Below, piece after piece: positions 9,501 to 63,978 of a DNA stretch of 64,000 bases (position 1 is its first letter; each line of letters opens with the position of its first letter). The notes beneath the pieces are model-generated. The model saw only the letters and a list, made by a program, of their open reading frames with translations, was not told the origin of the DNA and made no database searches. The translations under genes were made by a program, and so were the position numbers. The stretch spans positions 124,001-188,000 of the forward strand of contig BCKZ01000004.1 of assembly GCA_001600815.1 (NCBI GenBank). Reading direction: 5' to 3'. The DNA comes from Alloascoidea hylecoeti (taxonomy: Eukaryota).

Positions 9501-12500
9501 AAAGTCCTCAAAAAATGAGCCTTTAGAAGGCTGCTTGGGAACTGTATGAGGCTGAGTAGATGTGTTAGACAAGATAAACGGAGCCCTTGATTGTTGAGGT
9601 ATTGTGGGAGCTCTGGACCTATTGCCGGAACTGTGTATAGCCTTCTCGGAGCTTATTCCACCTGGGTATGGGCTTTCGAGTTGATTCGTTTTTTGTGAAT
9701 AGTTCAAACTACTCTTCTTTCGTGAAACATCACTATACAGCCAATTAGTATTAACATTAAAGTAAAATAAAATAAAATTCTTACCTCGTTGGATTAATCA
9801 CTGGTACTTTTTCTTCAAATTCATCGGGTAATAAATCATCATCACTTTCAAGGAAAGCGAATGATTGACTCATTTTATCATTATTATGTTGATTATATGG
9901 ATGATTTTCATTTAAATCATCATCTAATAAATCATCATCTAATATATCATCGTCGGCATCTAGAAAGGAAAAATTATCACCTTTGTTTTTTGTTATACTG
10001 TCTTCGATGTCTGAGAATNCATCATCATTAGCAAATATTTCACTGAATGGGTCATTAACCACTGCTCCACTTTCTTTTGGTTGATTAGATTTAACGTGAA
10101 TGGAATCACCATTATTTGAATCATTTATGGTTGGGTTATTATCAACTTTTGTAAAGGAATCGGGAATAGATTGATTCAAAACTGATAGGAAAAAATCACT
10201 ATCATTATTAGAAGTTCCAAAAGGTGCAGATAAAGATGTTTCTTTTGATGGAATATTCTTTATTTCATCTTTTTGATTTGATAAACTTTCAAAAAAGTCT
10301 CCATTATTTGTTGTCACAACTGGATTTTTTTCTTCAAACAGATCTTCTTTCTTAATATTTTGTTTTTCTGCTTTCGTTGGTGCTTTTATAAAATTTACGT
10401 TTGAATCATGGTGATCATTATTTGAAACGGAATTAAAAAAATCTTCTTCATTTCCAGTGTTTCCAAATGGATCATTTCCAACCTTGGATTCAGTCTGTGA
10501 AAAACTTAGTTGAGAAAAGAAATCATGACTCCCTACAACAGAATCTGGATTGTTTTCAAAAAATGGATCGAGTTTCTCAACAATTTTGGAACTCTGGGCT
10601 GTTTCAAATTGATTAGGGTTATTATTATTTTCCACATGCCTCTCAGTAATTTTATCACTTGTTGCATTAATATCAATGAGGGATGCAAAAAAGTCTGTAT
10701 TGCTATCTTCCTTGAAGATATCACTTGTATTAGGTTGGGTTGAATGTGACACTGATTGATTCCGAAATAAAGTAGATCTATCTTCAGTAGACGTTTCTTG
10801 TGCAGATGTGTCTTGAGTTTGTGTAATGACTTCAGTCTCAGCTGTTTTTGGAGAATTAAATCCATCAGTATCTTTAGCGCCATTACTATCCTTATCACCA
10901 ATGAGAGAGGCAAAAATGTCTGTATTGTTATCTTCCTTGAAGATATTATAGCTTGTAGCAGGTTGGGTTGAACACGGATCTGACTGATTCCAAAATGGAG
11001 TAGATTCATCTTCGCAGAAAGTTTCTTGTGCGGCCTGGGTTTGTCTAATGACTTCAATTCCAGTTTCTTTGGGGAAATCTATAACATCAATAATTTTACT
11101 ATCATTAACACCTTTATCACCAATGAGAGATGCAAAAAAGTCTGTGCCGTTATCTTCTTTGAAGGGATCATCACTTGCATCTGACTGTGTTGATGTTAAC
11201 TCTTGTTGGTCATAAAAAGATGATTTATCTTCAGCAGAGATTGACTCTTTTCCAAATATATTCTCCTTTTTCAAGGATTCTTCTATTCCAACAGCTTCAT
11301 TGTCTCCATTTCCATTATTTTTCGTGGGGTAGGAAACAGGGCCTTCAAGATGACTTGTAACTTCATCATTGGTCTTAATATTATTATTACCATTTGGTAG
11401 TTCAATTAATCCGATTGATTCCTTAGATGATTGATCTATTCCAGTTTCTGAAGTTATTTTGGCGATTTCAGGAATTTCTAGACTCTCCGGTTCAATAGTA
11501 GTATTATCTGTTTCCCGCTCTGTGACGGATGAAACATTTCGGGGTGTTGGTGCGTTAATATATTTTATATCACTTTCAGGCAATACTTCAGTTTTTACAA
11601 CATTATCAACCAGTGATGCAAAGAAATCTGTGTTGTTATCTTTTTCAGATTCAGGATCATTCATACTAGGGTGTATATCTGCAGAAAATTGTTCCCCTTC
11701 ACTTAGTTCTTGTGTGTGTGGCTCTAAACACTCATGCTCTTCCTCTATTTCAGGAGTTTCGATATTTTTAGGAAAATTATCATGAACTGTAAAATTGGAG
11801 CTAGAGGAATTTTCTTTCAATGGGGTTTCCGGTGTACTGGGACTTCCGACTTCCGATTTTGAATCTACTACTTTTGATTCTTGGGGATCAAATGATTCAA
11901 TGGATGGGATTACCTCAGTTTCTGAAATTGGATCAAATGAAATTTCATGATCAGAGACAGAACCATTGTTATATTGTGGGGGAAAATATTTCAAATTTAT
12001 GTCCTCACCTATAGTTTCAGTACCCAATTGTACATTCTGAGGGCTCTGAATATCGTGAATCTTCAATTCTGAATCACTCATGTTATTTTCCCTCTGCTCT
12101 TTTACATTTTTATCGCTAGCTGAATCATTTCTATCGGTCAATAATGCCAAAATATCTGTATCACTTTCTGTAGAATCAATATTTCTGGTATTAAATTCAG
12201 CCAGCTGTTGTTCTGATTGATTCCAGGTCGTGTTTGTTTCTCCAATGTGACCTGTCATGTCTTTTATAGGTTTGCCTTTAGAAGTCAAAGTGCTTAGTAC
12301 TTCATCCACTTCAGGAGCTTTAATACAAGTACTTTCGGGTGAGTTCTTGTTGTTTATGACACCAGCAGCGATTGAATTTTGAGAAAAGATATGCGAGGAG
12401 TTTGGTTTAGCTTCCAGAGTTGGTTTAGCTTCCAGAGTTGGTTTAGCTTCCAGAGTTGGTTTAGTGTTTCCATCATTAGTTGATTTTGATGAAAAAACTT

Positions 12501-19479: not shown

Positions 19480-20387
19480 GCAACCAACACCCCGAAATAC
19501 ATATTTCATCCGTCATAGAGCGGGAACAGATAATATTATAATGGACCCCAGAGACTAGAAATTCCTAATTATAAAATGCATGAAGTAACTTCAGAAGTTG
19601 TAATAGATCAATTATTTAGGAATTAATTGGTTTAATTGAGCCACCAATAGGTAACGAAAATATCGAGAGGTGAAGAAGCTATAAAAGCACTAACGAAAAC
19701 AGAAAAAATTACAACTTTGACAACAAATAATGGAGACGTTTTTGAAAGTTTATCAAATCAAAAAGATGAAATAAAGAATATTCCATCAAAAGAAACATCT
19801 TTATCTGCACCTTTTGGAACTTCTAATAATGATAGTGATTTTTTCCTATCAGTTTTGAATCAATCTATTCCCGATTCCTTTACAAAAGTTGATAATAACC
19901 CAACCATAAATGATTCAAATAATGGTGATTCCATTCACGTTAAATCTAATCAACCAAAAGAAAGTGGAGCAGTGGTTAATGACCCATTCAGTGAAATATT
20001 TGCTAATGATGATGNATTCTCAGACATCGAAGACAGTATAACAAAAAACAAAGGTGATAATTTTTCCTTTCTAGATGCCGACGATGATATATTAGATGAT
20101 GATTTATTAGATGATGATTTAAATGAAAATCATCCATATAATCAACATAATAATGATAAAATGAGTCAATCATTCGCTTTCCTTGAAAGTGATGATGATT
20201 TATTACCCGATGAATTTGAAGAAAAAGTACCAGTGATTAATCCAACGAGGTAAGAATTTTATTTTATTTTACTTTAATGTTAATACTAATTGGCTGTATA
20301 GTGATGTTTCACGAAAGAAGAGTAGTTTGAACTATTCACAAAAAACGAATCAACTCGAAAGCCCATACCCAGGTGGAATAAGCTCCG
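19480..20387 (+). pseudogene. Partial inverted SEC16 duplicate: decayed part (~19480-19717) plus near-identical 670-bp arm (19718-20387)
   Basis: 19480-19655 aligns by eye, with many indels and substitutions, to the reverse complement of ~11390-11555 (ccaacaccccgaaat, ttcatccgtca.agagcgggaa, ctagaaattcct, aacttcagaa, aatagatcaat). 19681-19707 matches ~10364-10390. The remainder matches 9647-10316. Confidence 0.9.
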
Positions 20388-21089
20388 GGAAAGCAAACGC
20401 TGATATAAAATCGCAATTAATGGACTAATTATGACTAAATAAATTTAAGCGCTAGACCGTAGCTTTAACTAACACAAAACAAATATAATGGGTATTTACA
20501 GAATGAAAATGAATTGTGGTTTGATATTTTTGTATATTAACATCGTTTGTTTTATGTTCCATTAGTAAACTGACTACAATTAATGTATAATGTTTGAATC
20601 AATAATATGTCTCTATGTGAAAGAAACATTTTGATCCAGATGCTAGACATAATCGTAAATGTTATATATCAGGAAATTTACAAGCATCATAATTGAAATT
20701 AGAAGGAATCCGTTGCAACCTCCAGAAATGGCAAAATTAGTACAAGATAAGATTGAACAGATCCACGCGCTTCCTTGATTTTTCTTAATAATCCTTTGAA
20801 AAAGAAGTGGCAAAACGTCTAGTCGGTTCAAAATAACTACTAATAATATACCAATTACTAAAATTAGTTTGAACTCGAAGATATCAACCTCATATACAAG
20901 ATGTCAACATGTTCAACTCTCCTAATTAAGCTTTACGTTTATAAATGATAACTACGAGCACTATGCTAGGTTGAAAATAATAATTAAGCCTTGGTTTAGT
21001 TAAGAATCTACGACGACTACTATGAAGTTACTGTTTACAATTGGCCAATAGATGGAGTAAAACATTTTATATGCATATAGCTGAAGTAA

Positions 21090-21400
21090 GTAAGAGATGA
21101 TCAGGAATCCTCATAACATAATATAACTGTATGTGGCTGATGATGTAGAAGTGAAAGTTCATTAAATGATATACAGATATAGTTATAGTATATCCACAAT
21201 AAATACAGTTCATAGTATGGCAGAGATCATGTACAGCTAAAAAGTTCAGAATATTTTTCAATTTGATTGTACAAAATCTAACTTTTATATTGTGATGATA
21301 CATCAAAATTGCATAGCCATTCTCTTTTGAATGTTTGCCATGATTCTAATTGGTTGAAAAACTTTCCAATTGAGTTGTAATTGAAATAAATTCAAATTTA
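21090..21400 (-). mobile_element. Possible degenerate Ty3/gypsy gag relic
   Basis: A stop-interrupted frame reads ESWQTFKREWLCNF...IEKYSELF...HHQPHTV, loosely like retrotransposon capsid motifs. Weak. Confidence 0.25.
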
Positions 21401-22039
21401 TCATTGTCTTAATTACCGGTATAAGCTTTGTCGTTAAAGATAAATCATTAAGAATAACTGCATTTAGTAATAGTCAAAATAAAAATAAAGATAATTCAAA
21501 TGATTGGTTACAATGGAAATTTAAAAAGCACAAAATTTAGTATTTGAATAGGATGATTCGTGAAAACAATTAGATAATAATAGATCTATATATATAAAAC
21601 ATAATATGAGGCAATTCTTTTATAATCAACACTAAATATTAATTTATATTATATTAGCTTACAATTTGGCATTTTAATAGCAGATTTAAATAACATGTAA
21701 TATCTTTTTTAAAGATATAAAGCTAAATTTATTGTGAAGACTATTTAATTACTATGAAACTATCTAAAACTTAAACTAAAGGGAAATCTGAAGGGTATTT
21801 ATATATATATATCGATCGGACATGCAAATATTACCATAGACCATTCTAACTAGTAGTTTCTAACTAGTACTTCAACATTACTTCGTTAAAGAAGGTTCTA
21901 ATAATCCAATATTATAATACTCAACTATAATACATAATATAAATAATATCTCTTTTTGTAATGTTGAGAAATCAGTTGCCGTAAAATATCAAAAGTTTAA
22001 AAGTTAGTTATAATTTATAATATAAGATTTAATATGAAA

Positions 22040-22624
22040 TAATTACCTTCTTTTTTGAAGTAGTTCCACTATTATATAAACTTAATTGATCATTATTATC
22101 AATTGATGATAAACTTGTTCTTGGATTAACCCTACTAGGAATTGGTGAATAACCATCAACATCATGTGTAACAAATTGACGTCTTGTTTGTGGTGCAAAA
22201 AAATTAATATTTTCTTTATTATTATTACTTTTTTCATCAACTTGTATTGAAACATCTCTATATTGTTTTGAAAGATAAAAAATCTTTCAATTATTAAATG
22301 TTCAAAATAAATTGTTATTGTAACTAATGAAACCATTAATTGAATTGATAAATTTTTTGCCATTGGTATGAATTGGTGAAAAAGTAATTGTTAAATATAA
22401 ACTAAATTATGAGGGATTCCACCCCAAAACTCTTATTTGCCAAATTTGTCTTTGTTTTGGTTTTGTGGTTGAGGTGTTTGTGCTTTTATATTTTCATCAT
22501 TATCATCTTTTTAGATCTTCTTCTAAAAATTGGAGAATTGAGAAATCCTTCTAAATGGAAAATCTGTCGAAGATGGTTGAATTGCTTCTGAATTATCAAG
22601 ATCAACTATTGATGCTGATGGTGA
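22040..22624 (-). pseudogene. NUR1/Mug154-like 3' gene fragment
   Basis: Broken frames read SSPSASIVDLD, GWNPS*FSLYLTITFSPIH, a TM-like segment and QYRDVSIQ, resembling the Nur1/Mug154 WDPxxFxL..FSP and RDVxTQ motifs. No 5' part; it abuts the RFA1 3' fragment. Confidence 0.55.
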
Positions 22625-22826
22625 ACTTTATGAATGTGATGTAATATATACTCGCAGCACCGGTATATTTCAGTATCAACGTTTTCAAATATTCACTCTT
22701 TAGAATAATCAATATTATGGATATCAGTTACTAGATAACCAAATCTATCTTTCCCTCTACAATTTTCTCTTATTCTAAATATTAATTCTTTACCATGTTG
22801 ATCAATACATAATTGTTCAATAATTT
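22625..22826 (-). repeat. Second RFA1-like 3'-end fragment; diverged direct repeat of 24964-25139
   Basis: Translates IIEQLCIDQHGKELIFRIR..RGKDRFGYLVTDIHNIDYSKE and shares long blocks (ctcgcagcac, atttcagtatcaacgttttcaaatattcac, ttctaaatattaattctttaccatgttg) with 24964-25139. Confidence 0.9.
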
Positions 22827-22830
22827 ATTT

Positions 22831-24770
22831 TTATTTTTTCTTTGTGATCTTCCTTTTTTTATTTCGATTTGCTTCTTTTTCTTTCTGTTCTTGTATATCT
22901 TTATAATATTGTAGTTTTTCCAGATCCTTGTCTTGTCTGATATTTTGAGCAGTTAGGAGATTAGTTTTGGTTTTTGATTTATTGTAGGGTCTTCTGGTTG
23001 TACTACTAAAACCGAAATCAAAAAAAAAGATTTCTCCCTTATTTGTTTTTTTCATATTAGCCGGTTTTATATCGCAATGAGCAATCTGCAGTGAATGAAG
23101 ATAGTTTAAATTCTCCTCGGCTATAACATAGTCATTAAATTTTAGATTGTTTCCGTCTATAAATTCCAAAATCATAAACAACCCAGAAGTTAAAATATTT
23201 TTATCTACACCACTGCAGAATCCATAACCGTAAAGATCCGGTGCAATTCTTTTAAAGCTTCTTTTCTTTTTCTCCCTGGTTATTCTGTCATAGCACCTAA
23301 TTTCGGATTCGAAATAACTGCAACATTTTTCTCCCATTGCACTTAATCGATAATTATACCGAGGAACTTGAACGGGGTCTAAGATCTTAATAATAAGATC
23401 CTTTTCAGGAAGATTTTGGAATTTTTCATATTTTCCCTCATCAATGAGTTTTAAGAAAACATTTTTCTTTCAAAGAGAAATACGCTGGAATTATATTTTC
23501 CTGGTTTGAACTGTATAATGTGTTTTTTCCATGTTCTATTAGTGGTTATCATAAGATCCATTTCACATAACCCAATTGATTTAGATTTAATAATTTCTGT
23601 GCTTTCAAAGCATTTTTTTAAATTTTCTCGAGTAGTTTTCTCCTCCTCAATTATTTCACCATCAGGTTTCCGAAGATTGGCACCTATTGATTCAAGATTC
23701 TTTTGAACTTTAGTTGAAGCTATTTGGTTTCCTTCATACCGTTGCATGGAATTTTTTAAAAACATGGTATAAAATAATAAAACGTTGGGGTCTTTATATT
23801 GCATTACATGATAGTTTATTTGAATTTTGTTATAAGAACCTTTTTTCCCATCGTGCTTCTTAAGATTTTGTTTTTCGGCTTCTGCAATCTCTATAAAGAA
23901 GATGATATAGTAGTCAGTTATAATTGAAAATGTTGTTTTTAAGTTTAAGCACTGATATATCATTTCTGCTGCCTTTTTACCAAACGTTTCAGCGGGTTTG
24001 AAAGGTTTAATACTATAAAGCATCCCCAACAACATTGGACGCTTAACTTCTATGGACACCAAATTATTGTTGTTATTTACTATCACGTAATCTGAGACCG
24101 TCCTCAAGTTTAATTCTGGACCTTCTTCTTTGTAAAAATAAGCTGGCTTTTGAGTAGCAAGCAGAAGATCTTTGCCAGCTAATAAATTAAACAGATGGAT
24201 ACCAGGGTTGAATAGTTTGGCTGTGAGATACGTTGAAACTACACCTTCGTTCAAATCGAGCCTAACAACACCTTGAAACATTAGTTGATCTATAAAGATT
24301 CTAAGCTTATTCTGAGGGAGTTTACTAAGTGCTGTCTCAATATAGACTCTCTATGCACTCATGTCAAGAGTTGAACCATATACTAATTGAATTTTCGAGA
24401 AATAATCAACCATTCGATTGAGTTTACTACTGGTTGCATTAGAGCTTTTAGTGGTTGTTTCCGCATTGGAAATCGATGCAACTCTGCTCTTTTTTTTCTT
24501 TAACATTGTTGGTCTATTAAGCTGTGGATACTGGAATAGACCAGTTATCGGAATATTCATCATGAACTGCTTCATATGAAGGACGTCTTGCTCAGCACCA
24601 AAGAACCCCAAGAAGAATTCTTGAAAGGATTTTAAATTTGAAGGGTTATCTAAATCGCCGAACATTTTTTCTAAATTAATTAGGTAAATCCTATCATTAC
24701 CATGATATTGCTGTGATTGTTTTGTAACCTCTTTTTTAAACTGGTCGAAATCCTCCTCGAAATCTCTCAT
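22831..24770 (-). pseudogene. Nuclease-like plus protein kinase gene, copy 1 (three track ORFs form one ~646-codon gene with one TAG and one frameshift)
   Basis: ORFs 24770-24351 and 24281-23451 are in one frame separated only by a TAG. The third ORF's frame is open back to the end of the second and contains LIIKILDP. Motifs: SDYVIV..LVSIEVKRP (D...ExK), IITDY, ILEFIDG, LHSLQIAHCDIKPANM, FFDFGFS, basic C-terminus. Confidence 0.8.
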
Positions 24771-24959
24771 TATGGAATGAGTAGAATATTTAAATGATGA
24801 TTTTTAAAGATAAATTTAGGTGCAAATGTATTGCACTTTAAATTATATCGTTTAGGGAAGCGATTTAATAATGATTTTGAGGACAGAATTTTGAAAATGT
24901 ATTTTTATATAAAAAGAAGTTGAATGTATTATTTCTCTACACATTGGATATGTGATTAA

Positions 24960-26628
24960 TTATACTTTACGAATGTGGTGTAATATACTCGCAGCACCGT
25001 ATATTTCAGTATCAACGTTTTCAAATATTCACACTCTTTAGCATAATCAATATTATCCCTCTATAATCTTCTGATTTTGCTCTCATTCTAAATATTAATT
25101 CTTTACCATGTTGGTCAATAAATAACTGTTCAATAATTTTTCTTGTCGATTATCTTCTTTTAACTTCAATAATTCTTATCTAAGAATATTTTTGAAAATT
25201 CATCAAGACAATTTTTCCATAATTCATCAGTTTCATCAATTATATTATAAATTGGTCTATTAAACTCTTTTCTCATTGATTCACAACCCCATTTATTATT
25301 TGAAGTTTTAATTAATTTTTTATTACAATTATATTCAAGACATAAAGGATATGGAAAAGTTTCATTACTAATTAATATGAGCTTTTAAATTAAAATATTC
25401 AGGTTTTTTAATTGATTTTTTTAAATTTTCATATTTTATATTTTCAATAATTTTCCTATCATTAAATTAACCCCACTATTATTACTATAGATTTTTGAAT
25501 ATGATTTTAAATTTTCTAATTTTAATTTATCATTATTTTTATTATTTTATTACTATGATTTAAGCTCTAATGATTATTTTGTTAAAGGATTTAAATACAT
25601 GATCATCATACTATCGAAAGAATATGCATATAAACATTTCTTACCACCATAATAACCTACTTTAGCATTTTTATATTGAATAACATCACCAACATTAGCA
25701 TTAATTAATAATGAATTAAAGTATATATAACTTGCACGGAAATAAATTTTAATTGAATATTTTGATCGTTCAAGTATAGTTATCTCTCATAATTTATATG
25801 GTTTAGCAGAATTTTTAGAATTTTTATCCGCGAAATCAATAATTTCTATGATTATACCTTGTATATCGAGGTTCAATAATTGTATCATTTTTCAAATGAT
25901 AAGGATGGTTTAGTTGTTTAAAATTTTTTTCTGTGGTAATAACTTTACATTATGATATTTTACAAATCTTTCCAAGTATTAAAAAATCATAAAATTTATC
26001 AACATCAGAATCATAACCAATTAATTGAATTTCACCTTTAAATTTATCTACTAAACATGAAACAAATGCCTTTCTAGTGTGTACGCTTTTGGAATGTTTA
26101 TACGCTCTTATAGATAATCTAAAAACAATTCTTGCTTTTATTACTCAGTTGTTTAGATGATGTGGAGATAATGTTGCAATTGGTGTAAAAACTTATTTTG
26201 ATTTTTATGATTTTTGTGGTTTTATGGAATAATCTTTAACAACCACTGTTCTACTCTTGTATTTCTTTTTCAATGGGAAAATAAGAAGGATTTCCAATTC
26301 TTGATTCACATTTTTCAATATTATACGTAGAAATGATTAATAAACCTTGAAAAGAGTGTTTGGGAAATTGGACTATTTCAACAATATCATATTTACACAA
26401 TTTCTTTAATTGTGATGAAAAATCAACACCGTAAATTCCATGTGAAGAAACTATATTGATTGAATCCGATAGAATAAACATTGACGCTATCTCTGTTTCT
26501 TGAGTATAGTCTCCAGGAAAATAACGACTGCTTAAAATCTGGAGACGAAGAATAAGATGAAGAAACGCTTCTTGGAAACTTGAGCTCCAAACGGCACTTA
26601 AAATACCAACCGATAAATAATTCTCCAT
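24960..26628 (-). pseudogene. Full-length degenerate RPA70/RFA1-like gene (DBD-F, A, B, C)
   Basis: Motifs in RPA70 order: MENYLSVGILSAVW..LQIL..FILSDSIN..RIGNP (F); TPIATLSPH..N*VIKARI, LVDKFKGEIQLIGYDSDVDKFYDFL (A); LDIQGII..KPYKL*EITIL..YSIKI..GDVIQYKNAKVGYYGG (B); DRKIIENIKYENL..KPEYFNLKA, FPYPLCLEYNCNKKL..KWGCE, KELIFRMRAKSEDY, IDYAKECEYL (C). Many stops and indels. Confidence 0.85.
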
Positions 26629-26714
26629 TAAATGAAAAAGAAGAAAAGAAAAAAAGTACAACTTTATACATGTTGTAGTCAAAGTAGGGTAACACATTCA
26701 CATTAAATTAGCAA

Positions 26715-28316
26715 TTAACTACTGTCTCTACTTATAATCTTCGCTGCGTATGTCTCAACCAGCGTATATTCAGTACTGTCGGGGTAAATTGCATATCCAT
26801 CGTCAGAAGTTTTGCCAGACGAGAGCGTTGAGCCAGCCTGCCAGTACAACTCCCCACTCAGCCCAGAGTCTATCACAGCCTGGAGCCAGGTCGTATAAAC
26901 CGTGGTCTTATCGCTAGTTACTCCGTATTCTTCAATAATAACTGGCTTATTCGCACTCTTTTGTGACTCAGCATGCTTGGTTATCCATGTCTCACCCCAA
27001 GATTCTGCACTTGATTCACCCCAACTGGTTGGATATAAATGAAAAGTTCCAAAATCAATTGAATCAATTTTCAAGTTCTCATCAAAATCAATTCCTTCTC
27101 CTCCGGTGTATGGATAATCTGATGATGTTGCATTGTTGAAAAATCCTTCGTCTCCAATTGCAACCAAATGATTAGTATCAATTGATTTGATATATTCAGA
27201 CATTTCTGTTGCCCAATCGGTAATTGCTGTTGTATTACAAGTTCCTGAATTTGTACTTGATGTTCCTGTACATCTTGGTTCATTAGCCAATTCCCATGCC
27301 ATAATAGTCGATTCATCTACATATCTACTAACAAATGTCTTAACATAACTCTTAAATGCTTGTTTAACCTCATCATTTGTATAAAAATAATCATGATATG
27401 TAGTACCCGTCAATTGTTTAACATACACATCCATACCACCATAATCTGACCAATTATTAGTTAATGTAACAATGATCTTAATACCTGCTGATTTAGCTAA
27501 TGAAATTAATGTATCAAAATGTTCTAATCCATCATCTCCAGTATTTACCGTTGCTGTTTCACCATCCCATAATTGATAATAAATGCCTGATGCACTTGTG
27601 ACTTCATTAAAACCCCATGTTCTGAAAACTGTCGCTCCAGCATTAACCATATCTGAAAGAGCAGTAGTCATGTCTGTTGTTCCATATCCACCAAGACCAA
27701 CCCAGTATGAATTAGCACCAACAACACTAAATGTAGAACTATCTAGTGTAAATGTTTGACCAGAAACACCAACAAAGCCAGTTGAATTTGAAACCGAAGT
27801 AGTTGAAACATCTGCTACTGCAACTGATGTGTAAGCAACAGAAAAAGTACTGCTTACGCTTGCAGTTTCTTTACTCACTTCAGAATCTGATACACTTGCA
27901 ATTGATGTATAAGTAGCAGACAGAGTACTTGTTCCTGAAGTCATTTTTTCACTCACTTCGTAATCGGATACACCTGTAGTTGATGTGTAAGCAACAGAAA
28001 CAGCAATGTTTGTAGTGGAAGTTGTTTCTTTACTCACTTCGTAATTGGATACACCTGTGGTTGATGTGTAAGCGATAGCAATATTATTGCTTGTGGTAGC
28101 AGCTGTCTCTTTATTTGTTTCAGCTGCTGATACACATTGATAATAATAATCATTCTGAGTAACACAAGAACCGGTTGCACAACAAGTAGGGCCAGTCCAA
28201 TAGCTACCACCACATTGACCATATAATGAAGCACAATCAGCTGCTTCGGCTATTGAACTAGAGAATAGTAATAAAACTGCAGTTGGAATTGAGAGAATTG
28301 GGTGATGAGTAACCAT
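26715..28316 (-). CDS. Secreted endo-beta-1,4-mannanase, CBM1 + S/T linker + GH5 (subfamily 7-like)
   Basis: Signal peptide; CBM1 [32 protein letters not shown]5 motifs [44 protein letters not shown]. First ATG is 28316 (track starts at a TTG). No introns. Confidence 0.93.
27815..28115 (-). repeat. About four imperfect coding repeats in the mannanase linker
   Basis: [17 protein letters not shown] / [17 protein letters not shown] / [17 protein letters not shown] / AYTSVAVAD. Confidence 0.8.
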
Positions 28317-59568: not shown

Positions 59569-60750
59569 TTATCGGAAGGCAACCTCTTTTGGTAATTTAA
59601 AAGATACACAAAAACAAACAATACATAGTGTTTGGTTGGTGCAACATCTCGAACATGATGAAATTCATCAACAATTCTTTCCCAAATTCGTTTTTGTATT
59701 TCTTCTTTTGATGTTTTTGAAAACAATGAACATGAATAAATGGTAAAGTAAAATCTGATAAATTTGAATCTCTTATTGAACGAACATATGAGTTATCGTA
59801 AATTTCAATAAAGTGGTGTAAAAACGTAATTGCACTATCGGGAAGATTCATAACGAAATGTTCGAATAGTTTTGGGCCTTATGTTGCTATTCTTTCAACG
59901 GCTACTGGTACTATACTAGCACCTTTTGAATTTAGTTCCAATTTTTGTCTATGTTTTGGTGGTTTTGGTTCATCAATGAAAAGTTTTGGATTGTTTTCAA
60001 CCACTTCCTTCATGGTTGATACAGAATTCTTAATAAATTCAGCACTATCTTGATTAAAAGGAGACACAAACTTTCCAACTTTGTTTAATTTAATATTATT
60101 CTTTAGTGATTCATAACTATGAGGATTTAAATCATTAGCCAAAACAACTACTTTCTTTTTACCACCAGGTACTGCAAATGGACCAACACCTGCAAAAACA
60201 TCACCAACAATCCAAATGGTTTAAATTTCTTAACTAATCTTTCATGTTCTGTATGAAGTTTTGAATTCCAATAAACTTATGAATAATTGAATTGAAATAT
60301 ACAATCTGATTCTCTTTTTTCAACATCAAGATTTGTATCACCAACTAAAACTTCCATTTTAAAAGTTCTAAATTTCGTTGCAATGTTATCAGCTTTATTA
60401 ACAACCGTTTTTATTGTTTGGATTTATCTAAAATAACTTGACCAATTAATTTTTTGTATGGTAAATATTCATCTCTTAAATTTATATGAGCCACATGTCT
60501 AGTCATTGCAAAAGTAGCAGGTGCACCATCTAATGAATCAATTGGTAAAACACTGTGTAAAATATCTTCTGTTTTCCAACATGAATAATCTAATGTTATA
60601 ATATGTGATTGTAATTCAACATTGAATTCATTCAATACTGATAAGGTTTCAAGACTTGCTGATTTTTTAGCATCCTCAATTGTTGGATAATCTAATAAAA
60701 CAACTTTTGTAGGTTTATTATCTTTTTGAATTGTTACAATATGAAAAGCT
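59569..60750 (-). pseudogene. TRM5: TRM5 (tRNA m1G37 methyltransferase) pseudogene lacking its 5' end
   Basis: HINLRDEYLPYKKLIGQVILDK, [frameshift] KTVVNK..KFRTFKMEVLVG, FNYS*VYWNSKLHTEHERL, [frameshift] GDVFAGVGPFAVP, LANDLNPHSYESL, HFVMNLPDSAITFL, VRDVAPTK, SFKLPKEVAFR*. Confidence 0.9.
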
Positions 60751-60789
60751 GAGTAACCATTTGCAAGTGGAGTATAATATATTTGACCG

Positions 60790-61389
60790 TTTTGTTTCCA
60801 TTTTGATTTTAGGAATCTTAGAAATTTCAAATATTCAACAGAAAATAATTTTTTATGGAATTTAAATCCAATTAATCAAAATTTTATAAATAAATCATAT
60901 CTTTTAAATGAACCACAATTTATAATATCAAATTTTGAAAATTATGAAATAAATTGTAGGATTTTATTAAATAGACATCAAATTTCTAATGATAAAGGAT
61001 TAGGAAGTTCAAATTTTATTAGTTTTAATATTTATGATACTAACAAATTAATTATTATACAACATGAATTTAGAACTGTTTTTAAAAGAATTGAAGTAAA
61101 TACACCACATTATTTAGTTAAATTAAAAATTCCAGCAAAAACTTCTTATAATATGGTTGTTGTTGCGTCATTTAATAATGAAGAAAAAATATCAGTTAGA
61201 TCTTTTACATTATTAACTTATTCATCACCACCCTTAATAGTTACAAAAATTAAAAGTAATACTTCAATATCAAATTTAATTAAATTTGATTCAAAATGGG
61301 ATTTAAATTCAACTGGTGGTAATTGGATAGATTATTCATATTTAAAAAATCCTCAATTTTTAATAAATTGTAAAAATCAATTTCATTAA
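60790..61389 (+). pseudogene. Internal fragment of a calpain-like protease (Rim13/PalB, C2-like domains)
   Basis: Frame open for ~200 codons: EPQFII..ILLNRH..VNTPHYLVKL..FTLLTYS..KWDLNSTGGNW..SYLKNPQF. No catalytic domain and no plausible native start; ends abruptly. Confidence 0.7.
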
Positions 61390-61707
61390 TTTGTTGTCAT
61401 TTTGCATATCAAAGAATAAATGATAAAGATTATGATGATGGAATGAATATGAATCTTTAATAAATGGTTCGGATATATTTGAAGATGTTAAAGAATTATT
61501 TATTAGTTGGTTGGTATGATAATAATAATAAACATTTAAAAATTATTGAAAATTATTATTGAAAATTATTAACCATTTATATTTATTCATGATTTAGTTT
61601 GGTACTCTAACTTATATTGTCACTGGTATTTCTTTTTTTAATGCAATTATTTGTTCCAATCAAAGAAAAGTTTATTCATTATTGGGACGTTCACTTGATG
61701 ATGATCT

Positions 61708-61895
61708 AGATAATCAACAAGAAATTATTGAACAGTTATTTATTGACCAACATGGTCAAGAATTAATATTTAGAATAAGAGCAAAATCAGAAGATTATAG
61801 AGGGATAATATTGATTATGCTAAAGAGTGTGAATATTTGAAAACGTTGATACTGAAATACGGTGCTGCGAGTATATTACATCACATTCGTAAAGT
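61708..61895 (+). repeat. RFA1-like 3'-end fragment heading copy 2 of the nuclease-kinase unit
   Basis: Close match to the reverse complement of 24964-25155, with the same internal deletion. Reads IIEQLFIDQHGQELIFRIRAKSEDYRG..IDYAKECEYLKTLILKY. Confidence 0.9.
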
Positions 61896-62038
61896 ATAAT
61901 AAATCACATATCCAATGTAGAGAAATAATACATTCAACTTCTTTTTATATAACAATACATTTTCAAAATTCTGTCCTCAAAATCATTATTAAATCGTTTC
62001 TCTAAACGATATAATTTAAATATTCTACTCATTCCATA

Positions 62039-63978
62039 ATGAGAGATTTCGAGGAGGATTTCGACCAGTTTAAAAAAGAGGTTACAAAACAATCACAGCA
62101 ATATCATGGTAATGATAGGATTTACCTAATTAATTTAGAAAAAATGTTCGGCGATTTAGATAACCCTTCAAATTTAAAATCCTTTCAAGAATTCTTCTTG
62201 GGGTTCTTTGGTGCTGAGCAAGACGTCCTTCATATGAAGCAGTTCATGATGAATATTCCGATAACTGGTCTATTCCAGTATCCACAGCTTAATAGACCAA
62301 CAATGTTAAAGAAAAAAAAGAGCAGAGTTGCATCGATTTCCAATGCGGAAACAACCACTAAAAGCTCTAATGCAACCAGTAGTAAACTCAATCGAATGGT
62401 TGATTATTTCTCGAAAATTCAATTAGTATATGGTTCAACTCTTGACATGAGTGCATAGAGAGTCTATATTGAGACAGCACTTAGTAAACTCCCTCAGAAT
62501 AAGCTTAGAATCTTTATAGATCAACTAATGTTTCAAGGTGTTGTTAGGCTCGATTTGAACGAAGGTGTAGTTTCAACGTATCTCACAGCCAAACTATTCA
62601 ACCCTGGTATCCATCTGTTTAATTTATTAGCTGGCAAAGATCTTCTGCTTGCTAATCAAAAGCCAGCTTATTTTTACAAAGAAGAAGGTCCAGAATTAAA
62701 CTTGAGGACGGTCTCAGATTACGTGATAGTAAATAACAACAATAATTTGGTGTCCATAGAAGTTAAGCGTCCAATGTTGTTGGGGATGCTTTATAGTATT
62801 AAACCTTTCAAACCCGCTGAAAAGTTTGGTAAAAAGGCAGCAGAAACGATATATCAGTGCTTAAACTTAAAAACAACATTTTCAATTATAACTGACTACT
62901 ATATCATCTTCTTTATAGAGATTGCAGAAGCCGAAAAACAAAATCTTAAGAAGCACGATGGGAAAAAAGGTTCTTATAACAAAATTCAAATAAACTATCA
63001 TGTAATGCAATATAAAGACCCCAACGTTTTATTATTTTATACCATGTTTTTAAAAAAATCCATGCAACGGTATGAAGGAAACCAAATAGCTTCAACTAAA
63101 GTTCAAAAGAATCTTGAATCAATAGGTGCCAATCTTCGGAAACCTGATGGTGAAATAATTGAGGAGGAGAAAACTACTCGAGAAAATTTAAAAAAATGCT
63201 TTGAAAGCACAGAAATTATTAAATCTAAATCAATTGGGTTATGTGAAATGGATCTTATGATAACCACTAATAGAACATGGAAAAAACACATTATACAGTT
63301 CAAACCAGGAAAATATAATTCCAGCGTATTTCTCTTTGAAAGAAAAATGTTTTCTTAAAACTCATTGATGAGGGAAAATATGAAAAATTCCAAAATCTTC
63401 CTGAAAAGGATCTTATTATTAAGATCTTAGACCCCGTTCAAGTTCCTCGGTATAATTATCGATTAAGTGCAATGGGAGAAAAATGTTGCAGTTATTTCGA
63501 ATCCGAAATTAGGTGCTATGACAGAATAACCAGGGAGAAAAAGAAAAGAAGCTTTAAAAGAATTGCACCGGATCTTTACGGTTATGGATTCTGCAGTGGT
63601 GTAGATAAAAATATTTTAACTTCTGGGTTGTTTATGATTTTGGAATTTATAGACGGAAACAATCTAAAATTTAATGACTATGTTATAGCCGAGGAGAATT
63701 TAAACTATCTTCATTCACTGCAGATTGCTCATTGCGATATAAAACCGACTAATATGAAAAAAACAAATAAGGGAGAAATCTTTTTTTTTGATTTCGGTTT
63801 TAGTAGTACAACCAGAAGACCCTACAATAAATCAAAAACCAAAACTAATCTCCTAACTGCTCAAAATATCAGACAAGACAAGGATCTGGAAAAACTACAA
63901 TATTATAAAGATATACAAGGACAGAAAGAAAAAGAAGCAAATCGAAATAAAAAAAGGAAGATCACAAAGAAAAAATAA
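62039..63978 (+). pseudogene. Nuclease-like plus protein kinase gene, copy 2 (same TAG and frameshift as copy 1)
   Basis: ORF lengths and spacings are identical to 22831-24770. TAG at 62456-62458; frame change at ~63340-63358. Six amino-acid differences from copy 1 in the track translations. Confidence 0.8.

Follow-up and report, generated by a model that had tools for sequence, protein, structure and literature searches.

Two copies of a broken gene for a nuclease-kinase protein, each headed by a piece of the 3' end of an RFA1-like gene (a relative of RPA70), lie in a 64,000-nucleotide (nt) window of Alloascoidea hylecoeti DNA (assembly GCA_001600815.1, contig BCKZ01000004.1, positions 124,001-188,000 of the forward strand; positions below are those of the window). 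Our preferred reading, to which we give a probability of roughly 0.4, is that this is a degenerating SPOK-like selfish gene in a cassette mobile by recombination. The gene would be of the toxin-antidote type and belong to a rare, patchy yeast family, and the cassette would be bracketed by repeats of the RFA1 3' end.

A nuclease-kinase gene bracketed by RFA1 3'-end repeats

On the minus strand, the RFA1-like pseudogene is followed by a spacer, the nuclease-kinase gene and a second piece of the RFA1 3' end, the order described in an earlier reading of this DNA (hereafter the original prediction). The first 3' piece, R3'-a, is still joined to the pseudogene body, while the clear repeat in the second, displaced piece, R3'-b, starts at 22826, just 4 nt past the nuclease-kinase stop codon. 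The two pieces match directly in self-BLASTN (24964-25139 to 22625-22826; 78% over 204 columns), and pairwise alignment of this direct repeat gave 156 matches and nine mismatches (94.5%), with indels of 9, 34, 2, 1 and 2 nt. R3'-a has its own 34-nt deletion that is not found in R3'-b and, indeed, every lesion in R3'-a and R3'-b is private to one piece, which argues that the RFA1 3' end was an open frame when duplicated. The core cassette, which runs on the minus strand from 25155 down to ~22602, comprises ~2.55 kb.

Self-comparison also bore out the claim that a unit duplicated at 61708 starts with this same RFA1 3' end. Thus, 22824-25155 matches 63985-61708 in inverted orientation, as seen by self-BLASTN and a repeat search (97% with gaps over 2332 columns; 99% over a 1987-nt arm). 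On its left, copy 2 begins at 61708, which corresponds to 25155 and is thus only 16 nt away from 25139, where the R3' repeat clearly begins (matching 22826). No RFA1 likeness was detected upstream of this end (61390-61707) by tblastx or blastn, or against PDB and Pfam, as would suit a cassette. On its right side, the final bases of the window agree with the beginning of R3'-b, preceded there by an expanded AAAATA run. For a short-read cross-check, Logan contigs were aligned to the window, with runs X1 (a metagenome), X2 and X4 carrying the organism. One X1 contig tracks R3'-b to 22602, 4 nt past the RFA1 stop, before passing into sequence absent from the window, and the depth bin for R3'-b is also about twofold in X2 and X4. 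The RFA1 piece in this contig is a probable second displaced fragment, and may be the right end of copy 2. If so, the shared unit would cover everything between the outer ends of the two RFA1 pieces, an outcome that random duplication breakpoints would rarely give.

In the three runs, unit depth was about twice that of single-copy flanks (17.9 versus 9.5, 106 versus 55, and 14.8 versus 7.1-7.7), and the genome therefore holds just two copies, those in the window. Because of this twofold depth, and because Logan contigs of the three runs also carry the copy-2 variants, the duplicated unit is not an assembly artefact. No empty allele or cluster of elements was seen in X1, X2 and X4, where no contig joins across the unit, a weak test given that the contigs are all short. 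Nor did the aligned Logan contigs reveal any extra depth on the R3' pieces at a likeness of at least 88%.

Shared and private lesions in the two gene copies

Both copies of the nuclease-kinase gene carry an in-frame TAG and the same frame break (24351-24353 and near 23462-23478, respectively, in copy 1), and a product of ~650 amino acids (aa) is obtained when the frame is read through both lesions. With the RFA1-like sequence split into pieces in three frames with intervening stops, the original prediction was right that both genes are broken. P0002, a 482-aa protein derived from Logan data and 99% identical, extends from the first methionine after the TAG to the end and has no frame break; its start just downstream of the TAG suggests that its Logan contig has the TAG as well. 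At 23461, a substitution and gaps were found in X4 and, in part, in X1, with X2 being equal to the window. P0002 and these contigs indicate that the frame break is strain-specific and that an allele without it exists.

The two gene copies differ by six substitutions in ~1940 nt, all amino-acid changing and none synonymous, versus nine in ~385 nt, plus a 48-nt indel, for R3'-a and the spacer taken together. The few differences in the gene relative to those in R3'-a and the spacer point to homogenisation of the gene copies by gene conversion after the duplication, and the later changes between them fit relaxed constraint. The spacer alone has four substitutions and the 48-nt indel (24796-24843). 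These 48 nt, immediately upstream of the nuclease-kinase start codon, are present in copy 1 and absent from copy 2, and the two copies may differ in their promoters. No other remnants of the nuclease-kinase gene were found in the window.

A PD-(D/E)xK nuclease domain followed by a minimal kinase

An exhaustive phmmer search of 1.84 billion representative proteins yielded 48 matches at E <=1e-3, of which eight, the query's own cluster apart, align outside the kinase catalytic loop; the 14 other matches that were scanned are generic kinases. Six of the eight relatives (624-727 aa) cover both halves of the protein, and two are short fragments that may be pseudogene pieces (the closest relatives, P0003 and P0005, are of this short kind). 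Word-based protein searches retrieved the same protein from a Logan contig and, in another case, P0025 together with generic kinases, and searches of metagenome contigs with two alignments yielded no locus. With about eight true relatives among the 1.84 billion representatives, the family is rare and patchy.

The protein plan consists of an N-terminal region, a PD-(D/E)xK nuclease domain and a minimal kinase domain that is Kdo/RIO-like. Alignment of the nuclease part reveals a conserved D...ExK, a helix with Q and Y/H, and then G-[IV]-[LI]-T-D and [IV]-E. The conserved Q and Y/H lie in the helix after strand 3, and their spacing is not that of QxxxY. A variable linker leads to the kinase motifs, namely the beta-3 Lys (in K-[VI]-Y-D-P), the alpha-C Glu, HxDIKxxN and DF, and the protein ends soon after DF, with no substrate-binding lobe after DFG. 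The Asp of HxD is kept in six of the seven members that have the kinase part, and DF in all seven. This part matches Pfam Pkinase (E 7e-8) and also ABC1, while relatives match RIO1 and APH too, and the Atlas neighbours of the family are Kdo, APH, RIO1 and FTA2.

A model of the whole protein had a mean predicted local distance difference test score (pLDDT) of 60 and retrieved only kinases in Foldseek, and the nuclease half was therefore folded alone. Its AlphaFold model (165 aa, pLDDT 74.9) has an alpha-beta-beta-beta-alpha-beta core, in which D64 opens one strand and E78-x-K80 lies in the strand that follows. When compared with 48,161 chains using VIA-align, it best matched BpuSI (Z 9.6) and DrdV (Z 9.2) and Vibrio vulnificus HsdR (3h1t; Z 8.4), followed by two restriction-endonuclease-like proteins (Z 8.3 and 8.2). 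PD-(D/E)xK nucleases also dominated the Foldseek matches, where the best E was a weak 6e-3 and HsdR 3h1t ranked 14. The model thus supports a PD-(D/E)xK fold for this half, in line with the type of nuclease originally proposed. The window protein keeps the triad D64/E78/K80, which is complete in five of the nine aligned family sequences and, as regards intact members with nuclease catalytic residues, the full-length relatives attest that such proteins exist.

The RFA1-like gene is a pseudogene of budding-yeast origin

Homology to RFA1 is clearest near the cassette boundary, where the open reading frame (ORF) piece at 25166-25384 matches Pfam Rep_fac-A_C, the C-terminal OB-fold/zinc-ribbon domain of RPA70/Rfa1 (E 1.4e-11, positions 9-82 of the 146 in the hidden Markov model, HMM). 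Its best relative of solved structure is Saccharomyces cerevisiae Rfa1 (6i52_C, E 5e-8, versus 1e-3 for the human and Ustilago proteins), which argues for derivation from a budding-yeast RFA1 and not from a foreign RPA; in the alignment to 6i52_C, the fourth zinc ligand is lost and six residues are deleted. A word-based protein search with the 72-aa RFA1-like piece returned no close RPA70, which is weak evidence. The original prediction of a full-length RFA1-like gene therefore holds for its C-terminal part; further upstream, 25574-25786 matches REPA_OB_2 only weakly (E 0.063), and the N-terminal 125-aa ORF (26251-26628) has no match in Pfam or elsewhere.

The pieces homologous to RFA1 are spread over all three frames, with stops between them. 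Over 25506-28012, the window agrees at every base with a 2507-nt contig of run X4, so the lesions are real. (Logan contig depth has gaps over 25573-27975 in runs X1 and X2.) Since RFA1 itself is essential, the gene is the pseudogene of a paralogue, long dead. The R3' peptides alone match neither Rep_fac-A_C nor Rfa1. Nonetheless, R3' directly follows the matched ORF, and the 64 remaining HMM positions of Rep_fac-A_C equal in length the following 200 nt, that is, the repeated piece. By its position, R3' would thus encode the RFA1 C-terminus, and we take it to resemble the Rfa1 C-terminus in sequence as well. The coordinates of all these features are given in Table 1.

Table 1. Positions of the RFA1-like and nuclease-kinase features in the window.
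Feature	Position	Strand	Remarks
RFA1/RPA70-like pseudogene, whole	26628 to TAA 24960-24962	-	Decayed
Pseudogene body (5' part, upstream of the cassette boundary)	25156..26628	-	Rep_fac-A_C and 6i52_C matches; pieces in three frames
R3'-a, final ~60 codons of the RFA1-like gene, contiguous with the pseudogene body; head of the duplicated cassette	24960..25155	-	Stop TAA 24960-24962
Spacer, RFA1-like stop to nuclease-kinase start (~190 nt)	24771..24959	-	Cassette-specific; no counterpart after R3'-b
Nuclease-kinase gene, copy 1 (~650 codons)	22831..24770	-	ATG at 24770; stop TAA 22831-22833
PD-(D/E)xK nuclease domain	23787..24281	-	D64 24090-24092; E78 24048-24050; K80 24042-24044
Minimal kinase domain	22975..23390	-	Beta-3 Lys 23386-23388; HCDIK 23065-23079; DFG 23011-23019
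R3'-b, displaced RFA1-like 3' end	22606..22826	-	Ends TAG 22606-22608; own 9-nt and 2-nt deletions
R3'-a', RFA1-like 3' end heading copy 2	61708..61900	+	Left side joined to sequence with no RFA1 likeness detected
Nuclease-kinase gene, copy 2	62039..63978	+	TAG 62456-62458; same frame break; window ends 22 nt past the stop

A proposed history of the cassette and its alternatives

We propose that a redundant RFA1 paralogue received the cassette in its 3' end, which was thereby duplicated. A second copy would later have arisen 37 kb away, through recombination or break repair that relied on the repeat ends or followed a cut at them, after which the two gene copies would have been homogenised by gene conversion. 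The system would now be decaying, with a nonsense codon common to both window copies and, probably, P0002, and with a strain-specific frame break. The protein plan suggests a SPOK-like gene of the toxin-antidote type. Such a gene would be selfish with no need to home, as SPOK toxin-antidote spore killers drive without homing. The locus as it stands is a decaying relic, of value because it may lead to intact members in related yeasts.

Several points weigh against this history. Meiotic drive and activity are read from the protein plan, and the resemblance to SPOK lies in domain plan and folds, no sequence-level link having been obtained. Pfam returned nothing for the N-terminal and nuclease parts (our copy probably predates the SPOK models), and the one Atlas lead is weak, a neighbouring cluster in which 11% of the members carry SPOK2_N (score 0.91). 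Moreover, the SPOK Cys/His cluster (C-x3-C-x13-C-x5-H-x7-H) is absent from the yeast family alignment. As to mobility, only two copies exist, both with the same nonsense codon, and the right end of copy 2 falls outside the window, the end at 22602 being given by one contig of a metagenome run. The coincidence at the left boundary lies in an A-rich tract where the alignment is ambiguous, and extension of the R3'-b repeat into the tail of the gene is marginal (p ~0.03 for any extension). Finally, all six differences between the gene copies are amino-acid changing, a pattern no less compatible with decay than with any other cause.

Among the alternatives, the one that survives best, doubtful as we find it, involves neither mobility nor selfishness: an ordinary yeast gene beside an RFA1 paralogue would have been caught up by chance in microhomology-mediated duplications and deletions in A-rich tracts. 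The junctions are indeed in A-rich sequence, and the window contains another recent inverted duplication (9640-10333/19701-20394) as well as pseudogenes such as TRM12, so the region does duplicate and decay. Chance would also account for the stop codons at the junctions. The gene stop abuts R3'-b because the ORF reads through into that fragment, with a C-terminal tail ~20 aa longer than in relatives, and the R3'-a stop is just one codon past the junction, with R3'-b running seven codons further; these positions look tidy but need no design. Nonetheless, chance would then need to have brought both ends of the unit to within ~20 nt of the outer limits of an older 200-nt repeat and, for an ordinary gene, the family is extremely rare and patchy, with short fragments as its closest relatives.

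The original prediction favoured an element of the WHO type. In WHO elements of Torulaspora and Lachancea, a host gene is followed by a nuclease gene and a displaced 3' fragment (Coughlan et al., 2020; PMC7282813), an arrangement discussed further in a preprint by Osborne et al. (2026). By analogy, the nuclease would cut RFA1-type genes ~60-67 codons before the stop, and repair templated by the cassette would add a new 3' end together with the nuclease gene; the old 3' end would be left behind, and copy 2 would stem from an ectopic insertion in which the RFA1 fragments were retained. We consider both parts of this scheme unlikely, even though the WHO-like layout stood up to analysis and the downstream fragment could serve as a homology arm, as these accounts of WHO elements would have it (PMC7282813; Osborne et al., 2026). 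In favour of homing, the unit common to the two loci is bounded by the outer ends of the RFA1 pieces, all three nuclease residues are kept, duplication apparently took place while the RFA1 3' end was still an open frame, and SPOK1 is reported to act on DNA (Urquhart and Gardiner, 2022; PMC9972908). What did not stand up was the rest of the WHO analogy. The host is a long-dead gene distinct from the essential RFA1, copy 2 has no detectable RFA1 body beside it, and the protein is not WHO/HO-like. There are only two copies, with no cluster and no presence/absence polymorphism in the three runs, and the R3' pieces lack the extra depth at >=88% likeness that a functional RFA1 with a near-identical end should produce. 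Furthermore, we know of no site-specific cleavage by a protein with a nuclease-plus-kinase plan.

A Helitron-like or other transposon carrying its own RPA70 gene, or an assembly artefact, is very improbable: plant and animal Helitrons can carry RPA70-like genes and the inverted repeat pairs each have ambiguous bases or near-identical arms, but the Helitron-like source raised in the original prediction was rejected, since the 19 ORFs scanned in the window include no Rep or helicase family and the RFA1-like piece is closest to budding-yeast Rfa1; as to an artefact, both copies recur in short-read contigs of three runs, with their variants and the twofold depth.

Genomic setting and neighbouring features

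The window, AT-rich (~30% GC), covers part of a gene-dense chromosome arm of a budding-yeast-like fungus, with homologues of SEC16, TPS1, TFC1, RasGEF, SEC10, PEX2/12 and CRM1 in uninterrupted ORFs of 363-1375 aa. Being full of such uninterrupted host genes, the region is not subtelomeric. No tRNA genes, which would mark Ty-like insertion, occur in the window. GC content was considered as a clock of decay and found uninformative, as intact window genes themselves range from 26 to 38%. A joint from 21499 to 25533 in run X5 was discarded as spurious, one of its sides having only 21 nt.

Upstream of the cassette region, the further inverted duplication at 9640-10333 and 19701-20394 spans 694 nt with arms 99% complementary. 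Its source is a stretch at the 3' end of a 1057-aa ORF beside SEC16, from which it landed in the gap upstream of the cassette region, and the two N bases of the window (10019 and 20015) are at equivalent positions in its arms. A second version of 20589-21201, ~7% diverged with indels, is present at single-copy depth in all three organism-bearing runs. It could sit beyond copy 2, which would bear on the size of the duplication. Directly past the displaced RFA1 fragment, 21568-22635 has a Logan depth 3-8 times that of single-copy sequence, many loose contig ends (among them 21695, 21757, 21934 and 22276/22280) and joints at which 239 or 286 nt are missing (21692 to 21932 and 21695 to 21982). This segment resembles a multi-copy repeat, possibly a solo long terminal repeat starting TGTTG near 21877.

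Copy 2 is adjoined by the TRM12/TYW2 homologue (wybutosine synthesis; 59597-60875, minus strand), a pseudogene with at least two frame shifts and two in-frame TAA stops. Overlapping it on the opposite strand, just upstream of copy 2, is a 200-aa open frame (60787-61389, plus strand), whose end weakly resembles the start of calpain domain III (Pfam E 0.32) and which may be a fragment of a RIM13-like gene. In that case, copy 2 would be preceded by pieces of two genes, like WHO10 insertions. On the far side of the RFA1-like pseudogene, an intact gene (26715-28316, minus strand) encodes a secreted GH5 glycoside hydrolase with an N-terminal fungal cellulose-binding module (CBM1) and three 27-aa Ser/Thr-rich repeats (81-nt repeats, 27859-28098), which is unusual for a budding yeast. 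A gene of this kind agrees with the wood-decay metagenome in which the same DNA occurs.

Comparison with known systems

SPOK proteins comprise an N-terminal domain, a PD-(D/E)xK domain with QxxxY, a Cys/His cluster and an ELK/Kdo-like kinase, with the nuclease domain being needed for killing and the kinase for resistance (Vogan et al., 2019; PMC6660238). The yeast protein is likewise a single chain (650-750 aa in SPOK) in which an N-terminal region precedes a PD-(D/E)xK domain and then a C-terminal Kdo/ELK-like kinase, in the same order. V. vulnificus HsdR is among the structural matches of its nuclease, and the same structure, 3h1t, is the best HHpred match of SPOK3 (Vogan et al., 2019; PMC6660238). 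Both families are also patchy and prone to pseudogenes. Besides lacking the Cys/His cluster, the yeast family differs in a linker ~100 aa shorter, in its host, as Spok homologues are described only for filamentous fungi in the accounts drawn on here, including a 2025 preprint in which they span filamentous lineages, and in its setting, as SPOK genes have not been reported between repeats of a host-gene 3' end. Homology to SPOK is thus plausible yet unproven. The literature that we found contains no report of a Spok homologue in budding yeasts, nor any earlier one of a nuclease-kinase gene with the SPOK plan there. Intact relatives would offer a tractable yeast system for studying the action of SPOK-type killers on DNA and the protection given by the kinase.

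Two further analogies bear on the repeats and the nuclease. Campbell-type integration of a circle through a homologous segment likewise leaves a direct duplication of the shared segment flanking the insert. This analogy is formal, no circle having been seen, and it leaves unexplained a copy at a site without detectable RFA1 homology. I-Ssp6803I, a homing endonuclease with a PD-(D/E)xK fold, illustrates that this superfamily can serve homing, a likeness that we draw from its general description; such enzymes are small, intron-encoded and bacterial, and we know of none fused to a kinase.

WHO elements share with the cassette the order of host gene, replacement 3' part, nuclease gene and, immediately downstream, displaced 3' fragment, and the ectopic copy here keeps its host-gene fragment, just as WHO10 insertions keep FBA1 fragments. 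They differ in that the nuclease of WHO/HO is an intein-derived LAGLIDADG protein with a zinc finger, as opposed to PD-(D/E)xK plus kinase here; in that their host is an intact essential gene and not a dead RFA1 paralogue; and in the clusters and allelic diversity not seen here, where homing would be read from the sequence layout. By protein type and host-gene integrity, the cassette therefore falls outside the WHO family. To our knowledge, no homing elements other than WHO have so far been seen to restore a host gene through exchange of its 3' end, and WHO elements are known from one nuclease family and one host gene. It is quite unlikely, in our estimate, that the cassette represents a second, independent kind, in which a SPOK-like nuclease-kinase would cut RFA1-type genes ~65 codons before the stop, with the RFA1 end-pieces as arms. 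Were this nonetheless true, a second case of the WHO design with an unrelated nuclease would mark that design as a general evolutionary solution that arose more than once, and would link toxin-antidote spore killers with homing endonucleases.

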